From: a virus
Lineage: Duplodnaviria; Caudoviricetes
Virus record (IMG/VR): IMGVR_UViG_3300028586_000752
Location: 1 to 54,957 of that record
Reading direction: 5' to 3' (one strand)
Length of the DNA: 54,957 bases
Within the stretch, counting starts at the first letter, position 1; the number at the start of each line of letters is the position of its first letter. A model generated the notes under the pieces. The model searched no databases and was not told the origin of the DNA. It worked only from the letters and a program-made list of their open reading frames with translations. This document shows, piece after piece, positions 1-47,193 of this stretch. Made by a program: the position numbers and the translations under genes.

Positions 1-1557
1 GTGAAGATCGAACTGAGCATGCCGCTCATCAAGGCCCTCAAGCTGGGGCAAAAACCGGTCGCAATCGATGCGGCAGGGAAGCTGGTGTTTGAGGCCGACC
101 CGACCAACGCCCCATACATCGTCTACGACGCGAGCCAGGATGCCCCGCCTGGCTTTGGCGTGAAGGTGGCCGGCAAGAAGACGTTCATTGTGCGCAGAAA
201 GGTCAACGGCAAGTCCGTGCAGCCGACGGTGGGCAACGTGGCCGACTTCATGCGAGCCAAGAGCCCGCTCACTGAAGCCCGCCAGGTGGCCGCCAAGTTG
301 GTCGAAGGCATCCTGTCCACTGGACGCAACCCCAACGTCGAGGCCCGCAAGGCCGTCGCCCTCATCCCTACGCTTGGCGAATTGTTCGCGCTGTATCGGG
401 AGCATGTCGCCACCCGAAAGCGCAAGCCGGCGAGCCAAGAAACGCTCCGCGTGTTTGATCGCAGCGTCCGCCGATTTGAGGCGCTGGGCTGGCTTAGACG
501 GAAAGTCGACGAGTTTGAGTCAGCGGAGATTCTCTCGGAATTCGAAAAGGCATCGAAAGAGGCTCCAGTCGCCGCCGAACAAACCTTCCGTCTGGCGATC
601 TCCGCATTGAACTGGAAGATGCGAAACGAGCAGCTTGACGCGAGCGTGGCCGGTCGAGAAGTCGCCATCCGCGCTAACCCATTCATCACGCTCGCGGCGA
701 ATGGGCAGTTTCTCACCCGCGAAGAGAGGGAGCTGCATTATCAAAAGAGTTCCGTGAGGAACCCTCTGACGCCATCAAAATCGCTTGGGGAATTTCTCGA
801 AGTGGCTTGGGCGAAACGATCGACGAATGACAACGCGACCGGCGTCGATTATCTGATCGCGATGCTGCTTTGGGGTTGCCGCAAATCGGAGCACGCTCAA
901 TGCGTATGGCGGGAATTTGTCCCGGCCGGCAAAGAGAAGGAGATGAGCTACGTCGATTTGAGCGACGATCCGATGTGGGGGCCTAGCGTCTATTTCCACA
1001 AAACGAAAAACACAAGGGCCCATCGCCTTCCGCTTACTCCATTTGCGGCGGAGCTCATGCGTCAACGCCAGCGGAGCTCGGCGGAGGAATCATCGATCCG
1101 CGGCTTCGGATTGAAATCCCGCCATTTCGTTTTCCCTGCGCGCTCTAAACAATCGAAGACTGGGCATTATTCTGATTCGACGGATCTTCGTGGCGCGATC
1201 ATCGACGAGGCCGGCATTCACAAGCTGACCAACCACGATTTACGGCGGTCTTTTGGCGCGATCATGACGACTCTTTGCGCGCCCGAGCCAATCAAGAAAT
1301 CCTTCTTCAACCACTCCGCGTCCAACATCACTGAGATTTATACGCCGCCCGAGTGGAATATGTTGCGGGAATGGATGTCGAAGATCGAGCAGAAGATCTT
1401 GATGACGGCCCCAAACGCTTACAATGCGTTGAAGCCCTCCGACTGGCCCCCACTGCCGGCGCCTGAGCCGCATGTGTGCCGCCCGCCAAAACCACGGACT
1501 GGCCGCCCGAAGAAGGCCAGCACGACCGCAGATGAAAGAGAGACCGAGGATGTTTGA
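1..1557 (+). CDS. int: Tyrosine recombinase/integrase with N-terminal arm-binding (DUF4102-like) domain
   Basis: Catalytic set WGCRKSE (R), KTKN (K), HDLRRSF (HxxR), FNH, EIY (Y); N-terminal PGFGVKVAGKKTFIVRRK arm-binding motif. Confidence 0.93.
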   Translation: MKIELSMPLIKALKLGQKPVAIDAAGKLVFEADPTNAPYIVYDASQDAPPGFGVKVAGKKTFIVRRKVNGKSVQPTVGNVADFMRAKSPLTEARQVAAKLVEGILSTGRNPNVEARKAVALIPTLGELFALYREHVATRKRKPASQETLRVFDRSVRRFEALGWLRRKVDEFESAEILSEFEKASKEAPVAAEQTFRLAISALNWKMRNEQLDASVAGREVAIRANPFITLAANGQFLTREERELHYQKSSVRNPLTPSKSLGEFLEVAWAKRSTNDNATGVDYLIAMLLWGCRKSEHAQCVWREFVPAGKEKEMSYVDLSDDPMWGPSVYFHKTKNTRAHRLPLTPFAAELMRQRQRSSAEESSIRGFGLKSRHFVFPARSKQSKTGHYSDSTDLRGAIIDEAGIHKLTNHDLRRSFGAIMTTLCAPEPIKKSFFNHSASNITEIYTPPEWNMLREWMSKIEQKILMTAPNAYNALKPSDWPPLPAPEPHVCRPPKPRTGRPKKASTTADERETEDV

Positions 1558-4215: not shown

Positions 4216-4446
4216 TCACAATCGGCCAGCTTTCTTGGGCTTCGAGCCCGGCTCACTGCATGCGGCGCGTAAGGCTCGGGCCTGTTTGTGGGCATCCCAC
4301 TTGGCTTGAATACGAGCATGGCGATTCGGATCAGTGAATGCTCGCGTCATCACGAAACTCGATCTTGCGATATAGAGGCGATACTCAGAAGGGCTCATGC
4401 TGAGACGCTCAGACTCGCTCGGGACGACAAATCGAATATCCTCCAT
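4216..4446 (-). CDS. GRL-tag array protein 9
   Basis: TGATG coupling to the upstream gene; ends QAKWDAHKQARALRAACSEPGSKPKKAGRL. Confidence 0.75.
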   Translation of the reverse strand: MEDIRFVVPSESERLSMSPSEYRLYIARSSFVMTRAFTDPNRHARIQAKWDAHKQARALRAACSEPGSKPKKAGRL

Positions 4447-4871
4447 CAAAGCCTCCCTTTCTTTCCATGCGAGCCCGTCTCAATGCATGCGGTGCGCAAG
4501 GCTCGGGAGGCTTTACGAGCATCCCAAGCGCCTTGAACTTGCTTGGCTGTGCGGATGCGGGTGAGCCCATCGACTGATCGGACGAAGTCTGGATGATTTG
4601 GGTAACTCGACATCCCAACGCCACGGCCGGCAAACCACGAGGCAGAGCCGCACTCGGACCGAATCCATCGCCGAAATCTGGCAATCCTCCCAACTACGAT
4701 CTTGGAGGCACACTCGACCCACTCCCCATGCGAATGATCGATGTAGAACTGTTCGATATCCTCCCGCGTCATCAACCCCATCACGATATCCTCCCGCGTC
4801 ATCGACTCTATCACGATACCCTCCCGCGTCATCGACCCCATCCAGACACCCTCCCGCGTCATTGACCCCAT
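4446..4871 (-). CDS. GRL-tag array protein 8 with 4 N-terminal 10-aa repeats
   Basis: [10 protein letters not shown]-type repeats; ends QGAWDARKASRALRTACIETGSHGKKGRL; TGATG coupling at both ends. Confidence 0.75.
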   Translation of the reverse strand: MGSMTREGVWMGSMTREGIVIESMTREDIVMGLMTREDIEQFYIDHSHGEWVECASKIVVGRIARFRRWIRSECGSASWFAGRGVGMSSYPNHPDFVRSVDGLTRIRTAKQVQGAWDARKASRALRTACIETGSHGKKGRL

Positions 4872-4873
4872 CA
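4754..4873. repeat. Tandem repeat, 4 x 30 bp
   Basis: Units cgatatcctcccgcgtcatcaaccccatca, cgatatcctcccgcgtcatcgactctatca, cgataccctcccgcgtcatcgaccccatcc, agacaccctcccgcgtcattgaccccatca. Confidence 0.95.
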
Positions 4874-5149
4874 CAGCCTCCCTTGCGTTGTGCGTGGGCC
4901 GGGCTGGGTTTCAGGCGCGGCCGGCGTCTCTTGATCAAGCTCGCGGGCGGCTTCTTGGGCGAGGGAGGATTGCACAAGTCGGGCAGTGTGCGCATCGAAA
5001 GTGACGCTTTCGAGTAGCGTGGGATTGCCGCGAATTTTTATGCCGCCGTCGCACTCAACGATAGAAACATATGAGTCAGGTGATCCGTCGCCAAGGACCG
5101 CCAAGTAAAACGCATCCCGCCAAACAGAATCCGAGCCGCAAAATCTCAT
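4871..5149 (-). CDS. GRL-tag array protein 7
   Basis: TGATG coupling; ends [23 protein letters not shown]. Confidence 0.72.
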
Positions 5150-17674: not shown

Positions 17675-17810
17675 TTAACAATCTCTAAGATCAAAAGCTT
17701 TAAAGATAAAACCTTAAGACTAAAAACAAAAACCGGGCGTGCCTGCAGGCGCACGTGGCGACGCGCCACGCCTGCGCCTGCGTGTGTGCGCTCAGGCGCA
17801 CACACGTAAT
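17675..17810. promoter_or_regulatory. Candidate oriT/origin: A-rich repeats plus two adjacent inverted repeats
   Basis: AAGA(T/C)..AAAA repeats ~17687-17732; IR1 17745-17781 (gcaggcgca-cgtggcg / cgccacg-cc-tgcgcctgc); IR2 17781-17806 (cgtgtgtgcgc-tcag-gcgcacacacg); upstream of mob. Confidence 0.5.
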
Positions 17811-17944
17811 AAGGAAAAACCAAAAACCGTGGGCTGCGAAAAACAAATGCACCATAGGAGAATCATGTGAACAGCGATGCCCTTACCGGGCCTCGCAGCG
17901 GCTTCGCCGGCAAACCTGAACACAGCGACCACCATCAAGCTCGA

Positions 17945-37559: not shown

Positions 37560-40500
37560 ATGGCAAACGAGAAGAAGATCCCCAACCCGTTCGAGGGGCT
37601 CGACCCCGTTGAGGGTTCCACCTCCGCTCAACCAGCAAAGGCTGCCGCGGCTGAACCGAACCCATTCGATGGACTCGATGACGCGCCGGCTCCACGTCGC
37701 GGCTATGGGATTGGCGACTTTGCGGCGGATGTGGGCGTTACCGCCGCCAAGGGCGTGATCGGTGTGGGTGAGGGCGTCGTCGGGATTGCTAACATCCCCA
37801 CGCTGGGCCGGGCCGGCAAAGCGTTGTCTTCGATCGGCTACGATCCGCGGGCCGCAAAAGAGCAGCTCGACAGCTATCGCTCCGAAGGGCTGAATGATCA
37901 GCAACGGGAAGTCGACGCGGCCGATGGCTTCACCGACACCGCCAAAGCGCTCATCTCCAACCCCGGCGCTCTCGCTGCCACTGCGGGCGAGTCGCTCCTA
38001 AGCATGTTCGCGGGCGGGGCGATCGGCCGCGGGCTGCGCAGTCTCGCTCCACGCCTCGGGACCGGCCTTGCCGCCGGCATCGGTGAAGGTGCGATCTCTG
38101 GCGGCCAGACCGCCGAGCAAATTCGTCAAGAAACCTCGTCCGGCGATTTGACGCTGGGCCAGACTGCGATTGCTGCTGGTTCCGGCGCGTTGACCGCAGG
38201 CTTGGGAGTCGCGGCGGGCAATCTGTCGCGTAGGCTTGGACTTGCTGACGTGGACGAGTTGATCGTCGGTGGCACGCCAGCGGCCACCGCTGGCGGCAAG
38301 GGTATCGCCCGCCGCATCGGTGAGGGTGCGTTGACCGAGGGCGTGATCGAAGAGCTGCCGCAGTCGGTGCAGGAGCAAGTCGCTCAGAACGTCGCGCTCG
38401 ATCGAGAGTGGGACGAAGGCGTGGGTAAAGCCGCCGCTACCGGAACGATCATCGGTGCCGCAATGGGTGCCGGAGGCAATGCCGTCGCCGGTATTCGTTC
38501 CCGCGGTGCGGGGTCGACCGAAACGCCGCTGGCGGATCAGGCTCCCACGCCAGGAGCTCCCACGCCAACCCCGGCGGGCCCCACGCCAACGCCGGCCGCG
38601 CAAGACCAGGGCGCGCCAGCTTCACGACGGAACGGGTTGTCGAACCAAGACGCTATCCCCGACGACGACCTTCCCCCGGTCGCTCAGCAGGCCCCTGTCC
38701 CGGCAGCGGAGGTCCCAGCAGCGCCGCAATCCGCGCAGCGTCCCGCTCGCGTGATGGAGCCAGAGGAAGACATCTTCGGCGATGCCGCGGCTGCTGAACC
38801 GCCCGCTGCCGACGCAATCCCCGTGTCATCTGCTCCTGCCGTTGCCACCGAGCCTTCGCCAGCCCCCTCGAACCCGGTGGCAGAACTCTCGCCAGCGGCC
38901 GCCGCGCTCGTTGCAGAGGCGGCTTCCCCATTGTCTCGACCGGCCGCCAGCTCGGTCCGGGTGAATGGTCAAGACTTCGTGCTCGATGAAGAGCAGCAGC
39001 TCGCGTGGGATGCGGCCGACGCTGCCCACGCCCGTTCCCTGTCGGGGATGCTGCCGGAGGTCTACCCACGCTCGGCGATCGAGAAAGAGAAGAAAGCTGC
39101 TGGCATGCGCTTGTCCGCGGAGCGCCGCCGCATCACCGGCGCGCTGACCGAAAAAGAGAAGCTCGCCGCCGCCGTCGACGCCGCGAAGATCCGCGCGGGC
39201 GACACGGTGCAAGCGCGCGTTGGTGATCAAGACATCACGGGCACCGTGGAAGGACTTCGCTTCGGCCGGGTGCGCATCAACACCGGCGGCGAGCAAGGCA
39301 TCGTCGAAGCTCCGCACTCGACCGTCAGCAAGCCACAGTTCGCTCCCGCCGCCGCGGAGCCGGCGCCTGCCGTGCAAGCCATCCCCGCGAACGTCGAGGC
39401 TGGCTCGGCGATCGACCCGCAAACCGGCGTTGTTACGATCGCCGATAGCGTCTCCGGGGTGGCGACGACGTTGAATCCCGCGGCCGGCCCGATCTCCGCC
39501 GCCGCCGCCAGCGCCGAAGTCGCAAACCAAAGCATCTCGCGGGCCAAACAGCAGTCGCAGGTTCAGGCCATGGAGGAGCTTGCCGCGGCAGACGCCGCCG
39601 CCGCTCCTCAGGCTGAGCCGACTTTCCACGCCGAAGGGATCTCCGCCCGTGAGCAGGCCGCCCGCTTGGAGACGTCGACCGGGGCCGCGTATGTGGTGGT
39701 TCCGACGGTCGACGACCAGGGCAACCGTGGTTTCCGGGCAGCTCCCGCCGAAGAGGCGTCGCAAGTCTACGGTAAAGACGCCGCCACCGACTTCGCCGCA
39801 GTGATGGAGCTGGCCGCCGCGAAGGATGGCGCGCCGCAAACGCTGCGCAGGTTGCGCGAAAGCGGGGCGAATCTCGACGCCATCGGGCCCGACGGCCGCA
39901 CCCCGCTGACGAGCGCGATTGAGGAAGGCGACACCAAAGCGGCCGCGCGCCTTGCCCGCGCCGGCGCGAACTTGGAGGCTGTCGACGCCAACGGCTTCAC
40001 CGCGCTGCAACTGGCGCTCGCCACGAACAACAATGCTCTCGCCGGTGCGCTGGTTCGTGAAGGCGCGAGCTTGGATCGGGTGCTTTCGATGTCGCAGCGA
40101 GACGCCGAAGAGAATCTTCCGAAGTCCGTGCAATCGCTTGTCGACCAGGCTGCTCAGCGCGACATGTTCACGCCAAAGGCAAGCGAATCCGCGGCGGAGC
40201 CAGTCCAATCGCTCCAATCGACCGCGGCGGGGCAGCCGACCGTGGAAGGAGATCGCCAGACGCTCAGCCGCGATGAGCTGGCGGGCAAGATCGAGCGAAT
40301 CTTCAATGGCGTGAAGCCGGGCCTTGGGACCGATTTGCTGCGCCTTTCGGGGTTCAGCTTGGAGACTGCCGCCGAGATTGGCGGCATAGGGCCTCGCACG
40401 TTCGGCGTAACCGAGATCCAAGGCGGGAAGGCGAACGTCCGCATCCCATTCGATAACATCCCGGCAGACTGGTCTGACGACCGCATCAAAGGCTTGGTCC

Positions 40501-43500
40501 TTCACGAAGTCGCGGTCCACGCCGCCGAGTTGGGAAAGTCGAAGTCGGAGTTCAAAGCGATCCAAAAACGCGTGCTCGACATGGCCCGGACGAACGACGC
40601 GCGTGCGATCAAGGCGTCGATGAGCATCCCCGAAGACACCGACCCCCGCTACTTCGGCGATGAGCTGGTCGCCTACTACATCGAGCAGAACCCGAACACG
40701 ACGATCGCCCGCCAGGTGGTCGAGTGGTTCCGCCAAGCGTTACGCTCGCTGACCAAAGGCTTCGCGCTCAAAGAGACCGGCCGCTTCAATCAGTGGGTCA
40801 ACGGTTTGACGCATGCCGAGCTTTTGAACATGGCGACGGATTCGCTGATTCAGCATGTCGAGAATGGCACGAATCGCTACGACGCTTCCACGGAGGAGGG
40901 CGGCGAGCGCTTATTCTCGCAAGGCTCCGCCGCCGCGACGCCGGCCCGCGATCCAAAAGCTGAGCTTTGGCGGGGCACGAAAGCGAAGATCAAGTATGTC
41001 GACAAGTTCACGACGATGCGCACGCTTGTTCGCAGTGTTGAGCGTGAGCTGGGCCAGCCCATCCCCGACGAATACAACCCGTCGCTCGCGCAAGACAGCG
41101 CGACGGCGATCGCCGGAGAGCAGTCTCGTTTGCTCGATGAGCAGCTCGTGAATCCGTTGCTGGACCTCCTGCGAGACAAAAAGATCTCCATGGACACGCT
41201 GTCGGATTACCTGCAGGCCCGCCATGCTCCGGAGCGCAACGCGGAAATGAAGCGGATTAACCCGAACCGCGCGAACAATGAAGCGCTGTCGGGGATGTCA
41301 AACGAGCAGGCGGCTCAGATTCTTGGGGTCGACATCGCTGGAATGCCGGCTGCCGACGCGATGGCCTTGCTCGACGCGGCTCGCCCCGATTTGCAAGCGG
41401 CCGCCGGCATGGTCGAAGCGATCATCGCCGACAACCGCCGTCGTTCGGTCGAGTTTGATCTCGAAACCAAAGAGACCGTCGACGCGTGGGACGCTAAGTA
41501 TGACTTCTACGTGCCGCTCAAACGCGAAGGCTTCGACGACGTTTTGCGTGGCAACTCCCCACGCCGCGGCACGGCTGGCTCGCTGACGCAAGAAGCGTCA
41601 GGCTCGGACAAACCCGTGGAAAACGTCGTGGCGCATGCGATCTTGGATGCCAAGAAGACGATCAACAAAGCGGCGCAGAACGACGCGCTCGCGGTCATGG
41701 CTGCATTCACTAAGCGATACTTGGACCCGTCGACGGCTCGCCTGATCAAGCCAACGCAAATCGCCGGCCACATTACCAGCCCTCAGGTTGGCGACACTAC
41801 CGTCTATGGGTTGCCGCAGAAGACGGTGTTCCAGACCGATGCCGATGGGAACATCATTGAAGCGCGGCTCCAAGACGATCCGTTCTACTCTGACAAGCCC
41901 AACGTCGTGGCTTACCGGGTCGCCGGCAAAGACTACGCGATCGAGTTCAATGAAGACTCGCCGGTCGCGCGCTCCATCGCCGTCGCTTACACCGGCGAGA
42001 ACGACATCAAAACCGATTCGGAGATCGTCAAAGAGATCGGCAAGATCACGCGCTACATCTCGCAGATCAACACGTCGCTCAATCCGTTCTTCGGCATCAA
42101 GAACATTATCCGCGACACCGGGCACGCCGCGATCGCGATCTCGAACACGCCAATCGCCGGCCGCCAAGCGGAGCTGCTTCGCAACCAGGTGCTCGGCACC
42201 AAAGCGGTGTTTGCGGAGCTCGCCGGAGCCAAACAAGGCAGCGTGGCGTCGCAGCAGCTTCGCAAGCAGTTCAATCGCTTCCGCGAGCTGGGCGGGAAAA
42301 TGGAGTTCTCGAGGATTTATGCGAACGCAGAGGACCAAGTTACGGCGCTGAAAAAGCAGCTCGACAAGGACTGGTTCCTCGACAATGCCGCCGGCCGCGG
42401 TCTCGAAAAAGTCATGCTCGACAAGCCGGCCAGCCTGTTCGTCGACAAGGCTGTCCGTCCGCTCGCCGCCGGCTTGGAGATCTGGAACGAGGCGTTGGAG
42501 AATGGCACCCGCTTCGCGATCTACAAAACAGCTCTCGACAACGGGGTGTCGGAGGCGCAAGCGATCTCCCTCGCTCAAAACTTGACGGTGAACTTCGGCC
42601 GCAAGGGCACCGACACGGCAGTCTTCTCGAACTTTTACGGCTTCTTCAATGCAGCCGTCCAGGGCACAACCTCGGTCGGCCGGACCATCTTCGATACCGA
42701 CAAGCCCGGCCCCTACGGCTTGCCGTTCTCGTTGACGCCAGCCGGCAAGAAGATCCTCGTTGGTGGCATCCTCGCAGGCGTGGCGCAAGCCGCGTTGATG
42801 GCGGCCGCCGGATTCGACGACGACGAGATCCGCGAGAACGACGCGACGAAGAACGTGCTTCTGCCACTGGGGGACAAAGAATATCTGCGCATCCCGATGC
42901 CGCAGGGTTATTCGGTGCTCCCCACCATTGGCCGCCAGGTCTTCAATGCGATCGTCTACGGGAAGCCGCTCGATCGAGTGGCAAAAACGATCGAAGCCAC
43001 CACCGACGGATTCAACCCGATCGGCAGCGGTGGCACGATCTCGCAGACTTTGGCGCCGACCTTCCTCGATCCGTTCGTGCAGCTCACGGAAAACAAGGAC
43101 TTCGCCGGCAATCAGATCTATCGCCGGGACTCGAACCGAAACAACCCAACGCCAGGACACGAACGCTCGAAAGACTCGGCCACCGCGTTCTCCAAGTGGG
43201 CGTCGCATGGGCTCAACAACCTCACCGGCGGGACCGACTACAAGCCCGGCGCGGTGTCGCCAACGCCTGATCAGATCGACTTCATGCTCGGCACGATCGG
43301 GGGCGGGCTGTTCCGCGAAGGACTTCGGATCGCCAATGCGGCGGAGTCTGTCGCGACGGGTGAAGACCTCGACGCGAGCAAGACGCCGATCCTCGCCGGC
43401 TACTACTCGGACGCGGACTCCAACGGCGCGGTGTCTTCGCGCTATGGCGATGTGCTGAAAGTGATCAACGCGCACGAGCTCGAAGTCGAAGGCCGCAAGA

Positions 43501-43715
43501 AAGACCAGGGCGACGTGTCCGGCTACTACACCGACTTCCCCGAGGCTCGTTTGATTCCTTTCGCTCAAAACATCGAGACGCAAGTGAAGAAGCTAAGTGT
43601 GGCGCGGCGCAAGGCCACTGAGCGCGGCGACAAAGAACGGGTCAAGGAGTTGGGCTCGCAGATCGCCGACGTGCAGCGTCGCTTGATCGAGAGGTTTAAA
43701 GAGGAGCGTCAATAA
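37560..43715 (+). CDS. Large polyvalent ejection protein: Gly/Ala N-terminus, 2 ankyrin repeats, zincin-like motif, C-terminal LPD38-like domain
   Basis: DGRTPLTSAIEEGD / NGFTALQLALATNN ankyrin repeats; LVLHEVAVH; ENGTRFAIY, NLTVNFGRKG, YLRIPMPQGY, ENKDFAGNQIY, SPTPDQIDF. Confidence 0.8.
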   Translation: MANEKKIPNPFEGLDPVEGSTSAQPAKAAAAEPNPFDGLDDAPAPRRGYGIGDFAADVGVTAAKGVIGVGEGVVGIANIPTLGRAGKALSSIGYDPRAAKEQLDSYRSEGLNDQQREVDAADGFTDTAKALISNPGALAATAGESLLSMFAGGAIGRGLRSLAPRLGTGLAAGIGEGAISGGQTAEQIRQETSSGDLTLGQTAIAAGSGALTAGLGVAAGNLSRRLGLADVDELIVGGTPAATAGGKGIARRIGEGALTEGVIEELPQSVQEQVAQNVALDREWDEGVGKAAATGTIIGAAMGAGGNAVAGIRSRGAGSTETPLADQAPTPGAPTPTPAGPTPTPAAQDQGAPASRRNGLSNQDAIPDDDLPPVAQQAPVPAAEVPAAPQSAQRPARVMEPEEDIFGDAAAAEPPAADAIPVSSAPAVATEPSPAPSNPVAELSPAAAALVAEAASPLSRPAASSVRVNGQDFVLDEEQQLAWDAADAAHARSLSGMLPEVYPRSAIEKEKKAAGMRLSAERRRITGALTEKEKLAAAVDAAKIRAGDTVQARVGDQDITGTVEGLRFGRVRINTGGEQGIVEAPHSTVSKPQFAPAAAEPAPAVQAIPANVEAGSAIDPQTGVVTIADSVSGVATTLNPAAGPISAAAASAEVANQSISRAKQQSQVQAMEELAAADAAAAPQAEPTFHAEGISAREQAARLETSTGAAYVVVPTVDDQGNRGFRAAPAEEASQVYGKDAATDFAAVMELAAAKDGAPQTLRRLRESGANLDAIGPDGRTPLTSAIEEGDTKAAARLARAGANLEAVDANGFTALQLALATNNNALAGALVREGASLDRVLSMSQRDAEENLPKSVQSLVDQAAQRDMFTPKASESAAEPVQSLQSTAAGQPTVEGDRQTLSRDELAGKIERIFNGVKPGLGTDLLRLSGFSLETAAEIGGIGPRTFGVTEIQGGKANVRIPFDNIPADWSDDRIKGLVLHEVAVHAAELGKSKSEFKAIQKRVLDMARTNDARAIKASMSIPEDTDPRYFGDELVAYYIEQNPNTTIARQVVEWFRQALRSLTKGFALKETGRFNQWVNGLTHAELLNMATDSLIQHVENGTNRYDASTEEGGERLFSQGSAAATPARDPKAELWRGTKAKIKYVDKFTTMRTLVRSVERELGQPIPDEYNPSLAQDSATAIAGEQSRLLDEQLVNPLLDLLRDKKISMDTLSDYLQARHAPERNAEMKRINPNRANNEALSGMSNEQAAQILGVDIAGMPAADAMALLDAARPDLQAAAGMVEAIIADNRRRSVEFDLETKETVDAWDAKYDFYVPLKREGFDDVLRGNSPRRGTAGSLTQEASGSDKPVENVVAHAILDAKKTINKAAQNDALAVMAAFTKRYLDPSTARLIKPTQIAGHITSPQVGDTTVYGLPQKTVFQTDADGNIIEARLQDDPFYSDKPNVVAYRVAGKDYAIEFNEDSPVARSIAVAYTGENDIKTDSEIVKEIGKITRYISQINTSLNPFFGIKNIIRDTGHAAIAISNTPIAGRQAELLRNQVLGTKAVFAELAGAKQGSVASQQLRKQFNRFRELGGKMEFSRIYANAEDQVTALKKQLDKDWFLDNAAGRGLEKVMLDKPASLFVDKAVRPLAAGLEIWNEALENGTRFAIYKTALDNGVSEAQAISLAQNLTVNFGRKGTDTAVFSNFYGFFNAAVQGTTSVGRTIFDTDKPGPYGLPFSLTPAGKKILVGGILAGVAQAALMAAAGFDDDEIRENDATKNVLLPLGDKEYLRIPMPQGYSVLPTIGRQVFNAIVYGKPLDRVAKTIEATTDGFNPIGSGGTISQTLAPTFLDPFVQLTENKDFAGNQIYRRDSNRNNPTPGHERSKDSATAFSKWASHGLNNLTGGTDYKPGAVSPTPDQIDFMLGTIGGGLFREGLRIANAAESVATGEDLDASKTPILAGYYSDADSNGAVSSRYGDVLKVINAHELEVEGRKKDQGDVSGYYTDFPEARLIPFAQNIETQVKKLSVARRKATERGDKERVKELGSQIADVQRRLIERFKEERQ

Positions 43716-43791: not shown

Positions 43792-44211
43792 ATGGGGCAA
43801 GAGCATCGCCCCCAAGGGGGAATCGTGGCGATTGGATTTCGTGGCGTTCGACAAGACATCGAGATCCGCCAAGGGGCGGAGGGCGGGCCGTATCTGTGCA
43901 CGCTGACCAACCAAGATGGCTTGCCTTTCGATTTGACGGGGTGCCACTTCAACACGTCAGTCCGCAAGTCGTCGAGCTCTTTGCTGACGCCGTGGGCGCT
44001 GGCCGCGATGGAGTCGGCGGTTGTCGACGCGAAAGCCGGCCGCTTTCAGCTTTGGATCACGTCGCACAACACGGGCTTGATGGAGTGCGGCGAGACTGAG
44101 CAAGACCCGAAGTCGCGTTGGGTATGGCAAGTCGATCTCGTGGAAGCCGACGGTCGCATTTCCCCGGTGGCTTACGGGGCGTTGATCATCTTCCGAAACC
44201 TCTGCGTCTAA
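43792..44211 (+). CDS. BppU-like Ig-fold virion accessory protein (start uncertain)
   Basis: DIEIRQGA...LPFDLTG...AGRFQLWI...WQVDL...VAYG pattern. Confidence 0.55.
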   Translation: MGQEHRPQGGIVAIGFRGVRQDIEIRQGAEGGPYLCTLTNQDGLPFDLTGCHFNTSVRKSSSSLLTPWALAAMESAVVDAKAGRFQLWITSHNTGLMECGETEQDPKSRWVWQVDLVEADGRISPVAYGALIIFRNLCV

Positions 44212-44271
44212 CCAGCATCAATTTATCCACTGCCTTCCGGCAAAACAAAAACAACATCGGGAGCATCACCA

Positions 44272-44679
44272 ATGGCACTCACTTATTCTTTGGCGTTGAA
44301 GATCGATCGGCTCAGCGCCGCGAACACGCGCATCGGTGCCAATGGCATCGTTACGCTCTATGGCGGACAGCGGCCGGCATCGCCTGATGTCGCGCCAGGC
44401 TCCCAGCCTTTGGTTACGTTCGCGGCCTCGTCGACCTTCGCCTCGACTCCTACGACCGCAGTTTTGACGGCCAACCCGATCGCTCAAGGCACGGGGACCG
44501 CAGCCGCTACCGCGGCCGGGACCCCGGCGACTTGGGGCCGGATCGCCGACTCGACTGGCGTCGGCGTGATCGACTTCGAGGTGGGGGCTGGCAAAGACTT
44601 GGTGATGACGCCGGACGCGGTCATTAAGACGAATCTGTCGGTTACGATCGATCAAATCAAGATCACCGCCGGCAACTGA
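44272..44679 (+). CDS. Virion structural protein (paralogue of 29033-29488)
   Basis: TLYGGQRPASPDVAPGSQPLV...GTPATWGRI...GKDLVM. Confidence 0.7.
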   Translation: MALTYSLALKIDRLSAANTRIGANGIVTLYGGQRPASPDVAPGSQPLVTFAASSTFASTPTTAVLTANPIAQGTGTAAATAAGTPATWGRIADSTGVGVIDFEVGAGKDLVMTPDAVIKTNLSVTIDQIKITAGN

Positions 44680-44740
44680 GCGTCTCACGCAGAAACCCTC
44701 GCGGGCTGGCTTCGGCCGGCCCGCTTCGCAAGGAGCCCTC

Positions 44741-45502
44741 ATGTCCATCGTTCCATCGAAAGTCGTCCTGCCACCGGATTCCACCGGCAAAGCGATCGAC
44801 AACACCAACGTCACCACCTCGGCCGGCTCCGTGCATCGTCAAGTGCTCGTGCTCGCCGATCCGGAGAACCCATTGGCCTACGGCGCTGTTGGAAATGCCA
44901 CGCCCGCCGGCAATGAATACGCAAGCCTCGTGCGGCATGTCGGCGTGCTCAATGCGCAGATTACCGGGGCAAGCGGTGTGGCGATGCTGCCTGCCGCCGC
45001 CGCTGCCGCAGACACGATGCCGAATATGGCTGCAACTCAGGTGCTCGCGCCGGGTTTGATGTGGAATGGGTCGTCATGGGATCGGAGTCGCGGCAACACG
45101 AATGTGGCGATGGGCGACACCGGAGTGAAGACTGCTTCGTTTTCCGGCGCGACGCAAACGAATCACAGCGCGCGCGGGGCGAAGATCTTCATCGCCGTCT
45201 CTTCCCTGTCTGGGCTGCTCGCTTCCGTGGCTATTCAGCTTCAATTCTCGCCCGATGGCGGGACGTCGTGGGTGAACATCGGATCTAGCGTTTCGGTGAA
45301 TGGGGCGGGCACTACGATGATCAGCATCTACCCCACCAGCGAAAGTGTTGTGGGCTCAGTGCTAACGCTCTTGGCAATGGGCGTGAATAACTCCATGGCT
45401 TTCAACGCGCCGCTGCCCCGGACTTGGCGGCTCACCTACACCCTCGGCGGCACCACTCCCAGCGCGACGATCTCTGTGTCGTCCGTGGCCTACCTGACCT
45501 AA
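44741..45502 (+). CDS. Putative fibre/spike structural protein
   Basis: AAGGAG SD; WNGSSWDR and QFSPDGGTSWVN beta motifs. Confidence 0.6.
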   Translation: MSIVPSKVVLPPDSTGKAIDNTNVTTSAGSVHRQVLVLADPENPLAYGAVGNATPAGNEYASLVRHVGVLNAQITGASGVAMLPAAAAAADTMPNMAATQVLAPGLMWNGSSWDRSRGNTNVAMGDTGVKTASFSGATQTNHSARGAKIFIAVSSLSGLLASVAIQLQFSPDGGTSWVNIGSSVSVNGAGTTMISIYPTSESVVGSVLTLLAMGVNNSMAFNAPLPRTWRLTYTLGGTTPSATISVSSVAYLT

Positions 45503-45518
45503 CTGCGCCGGAGGCAGC

Positions 45519-46463
45519 ATGCTCCTCGACCTCTGGCTGTTCAGCACGTCGCCGCCTTTGGCCGGGTCGCTCGTCGTTTCGGAGGCGGATGACGTCGCGT
45601 TGGGTGGCGGGAGGGCCGTCGCTCGCGGCTCAATCGCAGCCGGGGATGCTTCCGACGGGATGGTAGGCGGCGGAAGCGCCCGCACCAGGGCGAGCGTATT
45701 GGGCTTTGTCGAACTGAGCGACGCCATGTCCGGGGCCGTGCGTGCGTGGGCCACGGCAAACGGTGGTCTTCGCGAGGGTTTCGACGTCTTAACCGCTGCC
45801 GGCTCATTGCGGTCGACCGGCTATCTTCTTGCCGCCGAATCGAGCGATGACGGGGCCATGGCCGGCTCCATGCGCCTTCAAGCCACGCTCCAAGCGATCG
45901 ATTCGCCGGACGATTTTGCAGCCTATGGCTTGCTTGGCGTTTCAGCTTTGGGCTTGCTTGCTGAGGCGGGGGATTGGCTGGCGGGAGCAGGAGCGCAGCC
46001 AAAAACCGGCGTCGGCGATTTTCAAGACAAAAGTGATGCTCTATTCGGTTCTAGCATAGTTTTTGCCACTGTAACGGCTACGTTAGTAGAAAAGATTGAC
46101 ACCATGGCTGGCGACGGGGCGGCTTTGGGTCGCGGGGCAGCCGGGTTTTCCGAGTCGGCCGATAGCATCAGCGCTGCCGGGTTTTCGCGCATCGGCTCCT
46201 CCGCCTCGCTGTTGGAGGCGGGCGACGTGGCGTGGATGGCGGGGCGGGTCATCCCGACGGCTGCGCCGCGCAGATTGATCTTTTCGATCGCCGCACCAGG
46301 GCGATTGGGGTTCCGGCTCGCGCATGAAGACCGGCGGCCTATGCTGGTCGGCGAGCTGGCCTTGGCGTCGATCTCCATCCGATTCGCGCAGCGCCGAAGG
46401 CCGGCGCTGACGATGGAGATGGCGCATGTTCGGGCGTTCGGCTTCAAGAACGCCTCCGCATAG
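45519..46463 (+). CDS. Repeat-containing fibre-like protein
   Basis: GGAGG SD; ~21-aa ExxDxxxGxG repeats like those in 31850-33838. Confidence 0.6.
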   Translation: MLLDLWLFSTSPPLAGSLVVSEADDVALGGGRAVARGSIAAGDASDGMVGGGSARTRASVLGFVELSDAMSGAVRAWATANGGLREGFDVLTAAGSLRSTGYLLAAESSDDGAMAGSMRLQATLQAIDSPDDFAAYGLLGVSALGLLAEAGDWLAGAGAQPKTGVGDFQDKSDALFGSSIVFATVTATLVEKIDTMAGDGAALGRGAAGFSESADSISAAGFSRIGSSASLLEAGDVAWMAGRVIPTAAPRRLIFSIAAPGRLGFRLAHEDRRPMLVGELALASISIRFAQRRRPALTMEMAHVRAFGFKNASA

Positions 46464-46518
46464 TGTCGTGCGGGTTTGCCGTTGCTCTTCGCCTTTGCCA
46501 TCGCCTTAAAGCGAGGGC

Positions 46519-47146
46519 GGAATGGGTCTCGGGGGATTTACCCAAAGACTTGAATTGCGTAGGGGGAGGGGTTCGAGGAATCCCCCGTAGTGATGTGCCC
46601 CGAAGGGGACAAGTCTGAAGGGCGCCAGACATAAAAGAAATTTTCGGATGAATCCCGTTGCCGGAGGCATGGCCCTAAGGCCAAGGGTTCTTACGAAAAT
46701 TCCCTTTTATGTTGAATCCCCCGAGAGCCATCCTATGCCGATTCTGACGTGCCCCGCGGAGTGAAAAATGGGGGGCCTGTTTTTTGCGCAGCGGGGATAG
46801 AGTGCCGCAGGACACGACCAGCCATTGATGGAAGCCCGTAGTAGAAATGGAGGGGGCCCGCTTGCGGGAGGATCTATTTTTTCGCAGGGCTTCCATCAAG
46901 GGGATCTTGGATCGCCATCGGACGAGACCAGCCGCGGAGCGGGCCCTTGGAGCGCCATAGGACGCGACCAGCCGCCAGGGGGCGGGCCGTTGACCCCAAA
47001 TGCTTTTCGCCGCGCGCCCGCCATCTTCCTTGCGCGGCCCTCTGCCTTTTGATTGAATGAGGATGCCGTCGGGCAATGCTTTGCCCGCCTTATTCACTGG
47101 ATGGCGCAAAGACGCCCTCCCGCTTATGAGCGCCGATGTCGCGCTC
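46519..47146 (+). ncRNA. Candidate large structured non-coding RNA (family not recognised)
   Basis: Nested helices 46522-46540/46713-46731, 46629-46646/46694-46712, 46825-46837/46887-46899 and 47054-47062/47088-47096; G-U pairs favour the + strand; three motif repeats. Confidence 0.6.
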
Positions 47147-47193
47147 CTGAATAACAACAAGAGCCCGACACCAGGGCCACAAAGGAAAGTGAC

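Follow-up and report, generated by a model that had tools for sequence, protein, structure and literature searches.

Several described systems place small RNA hairpins, or tandem RNA units, within the transcripts of phages and their hosts. The coat-protein or translational operators of the RNA phages MS2, Qbeta and PP7 are small protein-binding hairpins in which one A is bulged and the loop is short. In ToxI and in phage pseudo-ToxI, tandem RNA units of equal length and nearly identical sequence precede a ToxN-type gene, while the RNase III hairpins between T7 genes and the REP/BIME stabilisers of E. coli operons are examples of hairpins in intercistronic RNA. The element considered here belongs to no described family and rests on one genome. 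It lies in IMGVR_UViG_3300028586_000752, a single IMG/VR provirus record of 54,957 nt (completeness estimate 72%) that represents an integrated soil phage and was analysed over its whole length, hereafter the window. The element consists of three tandem units in a 730-nt non-coding gap between an open reading frame (ORF) of 314 aa and one of 186 aa, each unit carrying a conserved motif, GCCNNNGGACNNGACCAGCC, followed by a hairpin that varies from unit to unit. The description with the best support is that of three modules, paralogous to one another and constrained in structure, within a non-coding spacer. In each of them the motif folds into a small hairpin (hairpin A), continues into an invariant tail and then opens a second, variable hairpin (hairpin B). 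The coordinates of these features are collected in Table 1.

All three copies of the motif that had been listed by an earlier, sequence-only reading of this DNA were confirmed on the plus strand, at 46804-46823, 46914-46933 and 46954-46973. They are the only perfect matches to GCCNNNGGACNNGACCAGCC in 54,957 nt, with exactly three on the plus strand and none elsewhere. The sub-motif GGACNNGACC occurred three times in the window when both strands were scanned, on each occasion at the repeats, and GACCAGCC, the tail, occurred six times, three of them at the repeats. Three perfect matches to 15 specified bases within 170 nt are far beyond chance, as judged from the size of the motif and not from a tool statistic. 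When up to three mismatches were allowed, six matches were obtained, the additional three carrying three mismatches each and lying elsewhere, and this count is unremarkable (shuffle mean 2.69, with 7 of 100 shuffles reaching six). A covariance model constructed from the three copies scored 41.7-48.6 bits on those same copies, which is high by construction, and at most 13.2 bits elsewhere in the phage, so that its informative part is the absence of a further copy. The starts of the units are spaced 110 and 40 nt apart and the units themselves measure 110, 40 and approximately 43 nt, with 71-83% identity to the reference copy over a 24-nt core. Units 2 and 3 are 86% alike over 35 nt, including flanking bases beyond the motif. 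Unit 1 keeps 20 of the 24 core positions of unit 3, although its flanks are unrelated and its hairpin B is wholly different. TRF reports no tandem array at the repeat locus, even at a minimum score of 40. The closing sequence proposed for every unit, GG-GNNN-TTG(G/A), is approximate only, since unit 1 reads GG-GGATC-TTGG and is one base longer.

The conserved motif itself folds. Hairpin A has the form NN-GCC-NNN-GG(A)C-N'N', in which five pairs enclose a loop of three bases and a single A is bulged, and the tail GACCAGCC that follows is invariant in all three copies, its final CC opening hairpin B. Seven positions of the 24-nt core vary, of which three belong to the loop and four form the two outer pairs of hairpin A. 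These outer pairs are G-C and U-A in unit 1, U-A and C-G in unit 2, and G-C and C-G in unit 3, and no position of the hairpin A stem is left unpaired in any copy. Compensatory changes, the absence of which from the stems was to have counted against the earlier reading, are therefore present: both outer pairs of hairpin A differ between copies on both sides only, and two of the nine pairs tested change in this manner. Since the outer-pair differences are all two-sided, they fit selection on a folded single strand, which may be RNA or single-stranded DNA (ssDNA), and a site recognised in duplex DNA needs none of them. In simulations of random substitution starting from unit 3 (200,000 trials for each number of changes, k), retention of the five pairs together with a double change was obtained in 2.4% of trials at k=4 and in 1.7% at k=3. 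The differences between copies thus keep the small hairpin within the motif, and comparison of the copies partly supports the pattern of a selected folded element. An optional outer helix, UUGG/CCAG, may enclose hairpin A in units 2 and 3, with pair probabilities of 0.20-0.64 around A2 in three contexts and of 0.12-0.73 around A3 in two local contexts, dropping to 0.00-0.05 for A3 when the whole gap is folded. In unit 1, two of its four pairs fail. The helix contains a U.G pair, which is possible on the plus strand only.

Hairpin B differs markedly between units. The perfect 13-bp stem that had been described in unit 1 (46825-46837/46887-46899) was recovered in every fold, with a mean pair probability of 0.98-0.99 in three contexts, and sits within an inverted repeat (I2) whose 30-nt arms, 46822-46851 and 46873-46902, are 77% complementary. 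The short GC hairpins described in units 2 and 3 are present in the sequence and fold when taken alone, but they are not robust, as other pairings compete in longer contexts. The pair probability of B3 was 0.24-0.39 in a 206-nt segment and 0.00-0.02 in two longer contexts. As read from the sequence, hairpin B of units 2 and 3 differs by one whole extra pair, and the same place in unit 1 is occupied by an unrelated 80-nt hairpin. These comparisons support the view that the hairpin after the motif is exchangeable in sequence and in length between units, as far as three units can suggest. The proposal that conserved flanks combined with exchangeable hairpins denote a functional RNA module consequently stands in part: it is favoured by the hairpin-preserving differences between copies and by the exchangeable hairpin B, whereas the specific functions put forward with it are unsupported. 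Two GATC sites 7 nt apart (GGATCTTGGATC) are present in the linker before unit 2, at 46903-46913.

The gap in which the units lie does not resemble its neighbouring genes in composition. Its GC content by codon position is flat (0.56/0.61/0.59), compared with third-position values of 0.71-0.86 in the flanking genes. In family scans that covered 22 ORFs of the phage, there was no PHROG or Pfam match for either the 174-aa minus-strand ORF (46675-47199) or the 75-aa plus-strand ORF of the gap, and the translation of the former is an R/S/G-rich string. A protein repeat is excluded, because units 2 and 3 recur at 40 nt, a period not divisible by three. A simple consensus scan found no sigma-70-like promoter in 46000-47600, and of the three terminator-like sites found by consensus scan none lies inside the gap on the plus strand, which is consistent with read-through of the gap as one transcript. 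The genes flanking the gap are all on the plus strand and have late-function matches in the PHROG/Pfam scans, and it is probable from this arrangement that the gap is transcribed together with the late genes. As the genomes of temperate phages are compact, a 730-nt non-coding stretch in the late block is likely to be functional. Other structures also occur within the gap. The 214-nt multi-helix domain upstream of the units contains small repeat families, namely GAAUCCCCCG twice, the pair UUUUCGGAUGAAUCCC / UUUUAUGUUGAAUCCC, and UGAYGUGCCCCG twice. A long irregular hairpin, CCCCGC...GAAAAAUGG-GGG-CCUGUUUUUU...GCGGGG, lies just upstream of unit 1 (46755-46797, plus strand), and its U.G and G.U pairs favour the plus strand.

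The reading favoured for the units, held tentatively and with a probability of roughly one in three (about 0.35), is that hairpin A and its tail are repeated protein- or RNase-recognition hairpins within a late polycistronic RNA. The folded strand would most likely be the plus-strand late polycistronic RNA, which would run from the virion genes into the cluster encoding the 186-aa protein, the HslV-like peptidase and the T5-A1-like protein. Each module would comprise three parts: the small hairpin GCC-NNN-GG(A)C, specific in sequence and with two free pairs closing it; the invariant 8-nt tail GACCAGCC; and an adjoining hairpin that would be indifferent in sequence and length. At every repeat, hairpin A and the tail would together be recognised by one RNA-binding protein or ribonuclease, encoded by either the phage or the host, and recognition would set the processing, stability or translation of the downstream cistrons, with hairpin B possibly acting as a structural spacer or stabiliser.

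A number of results weigh against recognition hairpins in a late transcript. The covariation rests on three sequences from one genome and was reached by 67 of 500 pair shuffles, no relative carrying the element was found, and scans of the phage ORFs, in sets of 22, 29 and 31, revealed no RNA-binding protein. In folding energy the 206-nt repeat segment is unremarkable, with z-scores of -1.19 on the plus strand and -0.83 on the minus strand against shuffles, and of -0.46 against other 240-nt windows of the phage. Predicted pairs other than those of B1 depend on the length of flank that is folded. In addition, hairpin A is weak on the plus strand (-1.8 to -3.3 kcal/mol) and folds better on the minus strand (-3.5 to -5.0 kcal/mol), where its 5-bp stem is regular, includes a U.G pair and is capped by a tetraloop, and this greater stability on the minus strand makes the strand ambiguous. 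Hairpin B1 favours the plus strand, as it is 10 kcal/mol better there (-40.6 kcal/mol, compared with -30.2 on the minus strand) and its G.U pairs become A.C on the minus strand. Since the neighbouring genes are all on the plus strand and B1 is more stable on it, plus-strand RNA is tentatively preferred.

Comparison with the systems introduced above shows both likeness and difference. Hairpin A resembles the operators of MS2, Qbeta and PP7 in having few fixed bases, with the remaining stem pairs free to covary. However, the bulged A of those operators is on the 5' strand and the operator is a single site at a start codon in an RNA genome, whereas hairpin A carries its bulge on the 3' strand, is joined to an invariant 8-nt tail and occurs in three copies approximately 200-390 nt upstream of the next start codon. 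The likeness to ToxI is that tandem units occur in a non-coding phage stretch and could be cut to unit length, but the units here are of unequal length, are alike only in the 24-nt core and have no toxin match among ten neighbours. A ToxI-like array was rejected on the 110/40-nt spacing, the 71-83% identity over 24 nt, the lack of a TRF array and the lack of an adjacent ToxN/AbiQ-type gene; PADLOC identified no ToxN-like toxin family among the ten neighbouring proteins, and the 186-aa protein gave weak coiled-coil-type matches only. Hairpin B1 is predicted to form an irregular helix of approximately 30 bp, the size that RNase III and similar enzymes use. RNase III and REP sites, however, are single or dispersed, and do not combine a small conserved hairpin with a fixed tail as the units do.

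The suggestion that the units are tandem aptamers, or ribozymes, gained no support from known families. A search of the whole window with Rfam 15 at the gathering threshold returned no matches, leaving the known riboswitch and ribozyme classes unsupported. At E<=10, six weak matches were obtained in 46300-47300, none of which covers a unit, and a minus-strand match to RF03544 (46977-47039) touches no more than the 3' end of hairpin B3. Other candidates were also set aside. A CRISPR array or solitary CRISPR repeat unit was rejected on repeat form and spacing, as 7 of 24 repeat positions vary and the intervals from one repeat to the next differ greatly in length. Intrinsic terminators were rejected because there is no plus-strand terminator-like site in 46464-47193, hairpins B2 and B3 being followed by GCCCUUGG and GCCGUUGA. 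A k-turn, an integron attC site, a sigma-54 or ECF promoter, N4-type hairpin promoters and tRNA-like 3' ends were dropped on reading the sequence alone, as was a Chi-like octamer, although the reverse complement GGCTGGTC shares GCTGGT with E. coli Chi.

The expectation that the motif would be found elsewhere in phage genomes was not borne out, as there was no second occurrence in IMG/VR, in GenBank phages or in the JGI metagenome matches listed. Comparison of the gap, and of positions 44000-50200, with GenBank phages by blastn gave no match, and neither did tblastn with the two flanking proteins. No related IMG/VR loci were found through the 314-aa protein or a 178-aa protein. The T5-A1-like protein led to eight IMG/VR loci at 30-56% identity, none of which contains the motif or any neighbour gene of the window, and to no locus among genome contigs, while the C-terminal part of the giant protein led to three related loci, none of them syntenic. 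A comparison of the 186-aa protein with 5.8 billion clusters gave two homologues only, one from the isolate Massilia sp. NP310 (80% identity) and one JGI metagenome protein (50%), and an alignment of all three found one spurious locus in genome contigs and none in viral or metagenome contigs.

Pattern searches gave a similar outcome. The tandem pattern matched one IMG/VR locus, a coding repeat, and the single-unit pattern matched 110 IMG/VR loci with one match each, both flanking pairs being complementary in 20 of the 110, compared with approximately 15 expected by chance on our own estimate. In JGI metagenomes the tandem pattern matched at least 119 loci; among the matches listed, two hold one full 20-nt motif and none holds two, and by eye these matches are mostly coding sequence or simple repeats. 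A looser tandem pattern matched 49 loci, in which the only non-coding arrays were those of two contigs, L281 and L277, both unrelated in context. One sequencing run contains the stretch, probably the source DNA sample, and no RNA run was listed. Its contigs over 46300-47400 at 80% likeness comprise the source contig and one 69-nt contig only, with no variants.

Among the alternatives, it is possible, though unlikely, that the repeats, instead of being simple mRNA signals, belong to an independent and larger structured non-coding RNA (ncRNA) that fills much of the gap and includes the 214-nt domain. The stretch 46501-46740 is the most stable among approximately 912 plus-strand windows of 240 nt in the phage (z -3.83), the domain is closed by a long-range helix, and the whole gap folds at z -3.67. 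Moreover, compact phage genomes rarely keep 730 nt non-coding. Nevertheless, there is no promoter or plus-strand terminator to delimit such an RNA gene, the z-score of the whole gap derives from 20 shuffles only, and the repeat part is not unusually stable. There is also no Rfam match, the best being a weak one to proV (RF03045) at 46490-46679, which overlaps the domain and scores 22.1 bits against a cut-off of 88.5.

A young local duplication without function is likewise a doubtful explanation of the repeats. Slippage or unequal recombination would have copied a hairpin-bearing piece of spacer, as the likeness of units 2 and 3 outside the motif could suggest, together with the confinement of the element to this locus and the lack of any relative. 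In opposition to this, each of the stem differences has its compensating change, an outcome that random substitution would rarely produce (0.024 and 0.017 in the simulations described above). Furthermore, unit 1 retains most of its core despite its unrelated flanks and different hairpin B, and TRF recognises no array.

An elaboration of the ncRNA alternative appears improbable. It would have the gap encode a large phage ncRNA new to Rfam, in which the 214-nt domain is followed by the three bulged-hairpin modules. Late in infection these modules would serve as a decoy or sponge, by titration or recruitment of an RNA-binding protein or nuclease of the host. It is similarly improbable that the units act as ssDNA hairpins, on either strand, serving as sites for a phage DNA enzyme such as the Mob_Pre-like nickase, or as priming or packaging signals. 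A hairpin plus a conserved tail is the scheme typical of ssDNA enzyme sites, the phage encodes a Mob_Pre-domain protein beside an O-like initiator, hairpin A is equally possible on both strands, and the covariation indicates a folded strand but does not separate RNA from ssDNA. The units, however, are located approximately 29 kb from the Mob_Pre and initiator genes and inside the late gene block, three tandem copies are unusual for a nick site, and the G.U pairs of B1 favour RNA.

Sites bound in duplex DNA by a phage regulator or initiator, in the manner of iterons or operators, are very unlikely. The units are direct repeats of a 20-24-bp word, as in iteron arrays, in which direct repeats of approximately 20 bp occur. 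An example of such an array is found in L281 (1488-2099), an IMG/VR contig from an unrelated phage or plasmid. Its non-coding region of approximately 750 nt, probably a replication origin, lies next to an AAA_25 helicase gene and comprises three different tandem arrays, of 23 nt x 6.1, 40 nt x 2.8 and 11 nt x 4.5. The 23-nt unit of L281 shares 17 of 19 positions with unit 2, but this likeness amounts to a coincidence of about 1 in 25 given approximately 147 comparisons, by our own estimate. Iterons are evenly spaced, nearly identical and adjacent to initiator or helicase genes, whereas the units here are spaced irregularly, at 110 and 40 bp, in the late gene block, approximately 30 kb from the initiator, and where they vary they do so by complementary pairs, for which duplex recognition has no need. 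Iterons and duplex operators were rejected on these grounds.

A sponge for CsrA/RsmA-type proteins, which had been suggested from the GGA cores of the units, is most improbable. GGA is indeed enriched, with 11 occurrences in 192 nt against 2.8 expected, a count reached by 0.13% of the 192-nt windows of the phage, and a GGA forms the loop of hairpin B2. The repetition of short hairpin units, together with the surplus of GGA, also resembles CsrB, RsmY and RsmZ. Unlike in those RNAs, the three conserved GGAs are located in the 3' strand and bulge of hairpin A and not in loops, and the predicted fold pairs both Gs in the majority of the 23 GGAs of the gap. In addition, the phage record contains no match to CsrA (PF02599), and the gap has no promoter or plus-strand terminator of its own. 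A local cluster of a host-dispersed, REP/BIME-like repeat family carried by the prophage would account for short hairpin-bearing units in a probably transcribed spacer, but is scarcely credible given that there is no further copy in the 55-kb phage, that the source run adds only the 69-nt contig (40 nt aligned, with 8 differences) and that no locus with two full motifs is present among the metagenome matches listed.

Table 1. Coordinates of the repeat units, of the gap that contains them and of other features of the window
Feature	Position	Strand	Remarks
Hairpin A1	46802..46815	plus	GU-GCC-GCA-GG(A)C-AC; 5/5 pairs standard; -1.8 kcal/mol on plus, complement -3.8 on minus
Tail, unit 1	46816..46823	plus	GACCAGCC, 8 nt
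Hairpin B1	46822..46901	plus	13-bp stem, inner 9-bp helix with 2 G.U pairs, apical CCCG-CUUG-CGGG
Hairpin A2	46912..46925	plus	UC-GCC-AUC-GG(A)C-GA; pair probability 0.44-0.68 by context
Tail, unit 2	46926..46933	plus	GACCAGCC, 8 nt
Hairpin B2	46932..46942	plus	CCGC-GGA-GCGG; -5.1 kcal/mol alone
Hairpin A3	46952..46965	plus	GC-GCC-AUA-GG(A)C-GC; pair probability 0.70-0.78 in two local contexts, 0.05 in whole-gap fold
Tail, unit 3	46966..46973	plus	GACCAGCC, 8 nt
Hairpin B3	46972..46985	plus	CCGCC-AGGG-GGCGG; -8.4 kcal/mol alone
Optional outer helix	46907..46931 (around A2); 46947-46971 (around A3)	plus	UUGG/CCAG; absent in unit 1
Non-coding gap	46464..47193	plus	730 nt, between the 314-aa and 186-aa ORFs; holds the repeats
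Multi-helix domain	46522-46735	plus	214 nt; closed by long-range helix AUGG-GUCUCGGGGGAUU / GAAUCCCCCGAGA-GCCAU (inverted repeat I1)
314-aa ORF	45519-46463	plus	Upstream flank of gap
186-aa ORF	47194-47754	plus	Downstream flank of gap; coiled-coil, hydrophobic C-terminal stretch (read from alignment)
Genes 3' of the 186-aa ORF		plus	HslV-like peptidase, T5-A1-like protein, GH19 endolysin, spanin
T5-A1-like 'DNA transfer' protein	48425-50110	plus	Weak N-terminal helix-turn-helix
Integrase	1-1557		Left end of record; excisionase-like helix-turn-helix protein also at left end
Block of mostly unknown genes	2.8-17.8 kb	minus	
200-aa protein	11096-11698	minus	Borderline Sigma70_r4 match, 24.2 bits against cut-off of 24.1
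O-like replication initiator	15413-16546	minus	Family scan
Mob_Pre-domain protein	16543-17823	minus	426 aa; E 4.2e-6, 27.1 bits against cut-off of 25.5
One long gene block	from 18.3 kb	plus	RusA, small and large terminase, P22-type portal, major head protein, SU10-type adaptor, head closure protein, Laminin_G tail protein, small virion proteins
Polyvalent protein	37560-43715	plus	2051 aa; ankyrin repeats, LPD38 domain, DarB-like region

Family scans of its ORFs indicate that the phage is temperate and podovirus-like, and no tRNAs were found by ARAGORN. The gene for the Mob_Pre-domain protein (plasmid recombination enzyme) is directly upstream of that for the O-like initiator, which is an unusual pairing in a phage replication module, and the 200-aa protein that matches Sigma70_r4 may be a phage-encoded sigma-like factor. 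The virion gene block includes the gene for the 2051-aa polyvalent protein, at a distance of 2.7 kb upstream of the gap. Relatives of the T5-A1-like protein were found by tblastn in 1133 phage records, all at less than 60% identity, and the protein is encoded in what is apparently the late block of a temperate phage. Elsewhere in the window, a tandem repeat of 30 nt x 4.0 with 86% matches is present at 4754-4874, where it overlaps the minus-strand ORFs 4446-4874 and 4513-4995. The second most stable plus-strand stretch of the phage is 9781-10140 (z -3.2 to -3.5 in three overlapping 240-nt windows), the ORFs there being on the minus strand. In the source sample, the contig over 46300-47400 is 58,712 nt long with a word depth of 122.5, and an identical 186-aa protein is recorded on a 511-kb contig; taken together, these suggest that the phage may be present in the sample both in integrated form and as a separate, high-copy form.

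At present the repeated hairpin and tail are a single-genome observation of limited statistical weight. If the reading of the units as recognition hairpins is true, they would represent, in a phage lineage that has hardly been sampled, a new motif recognised by an RNA-binding protein or nuclease and, if confirmed in relatives, would provide a handle on the processing of late phage transcripts or on the capture of host factors.

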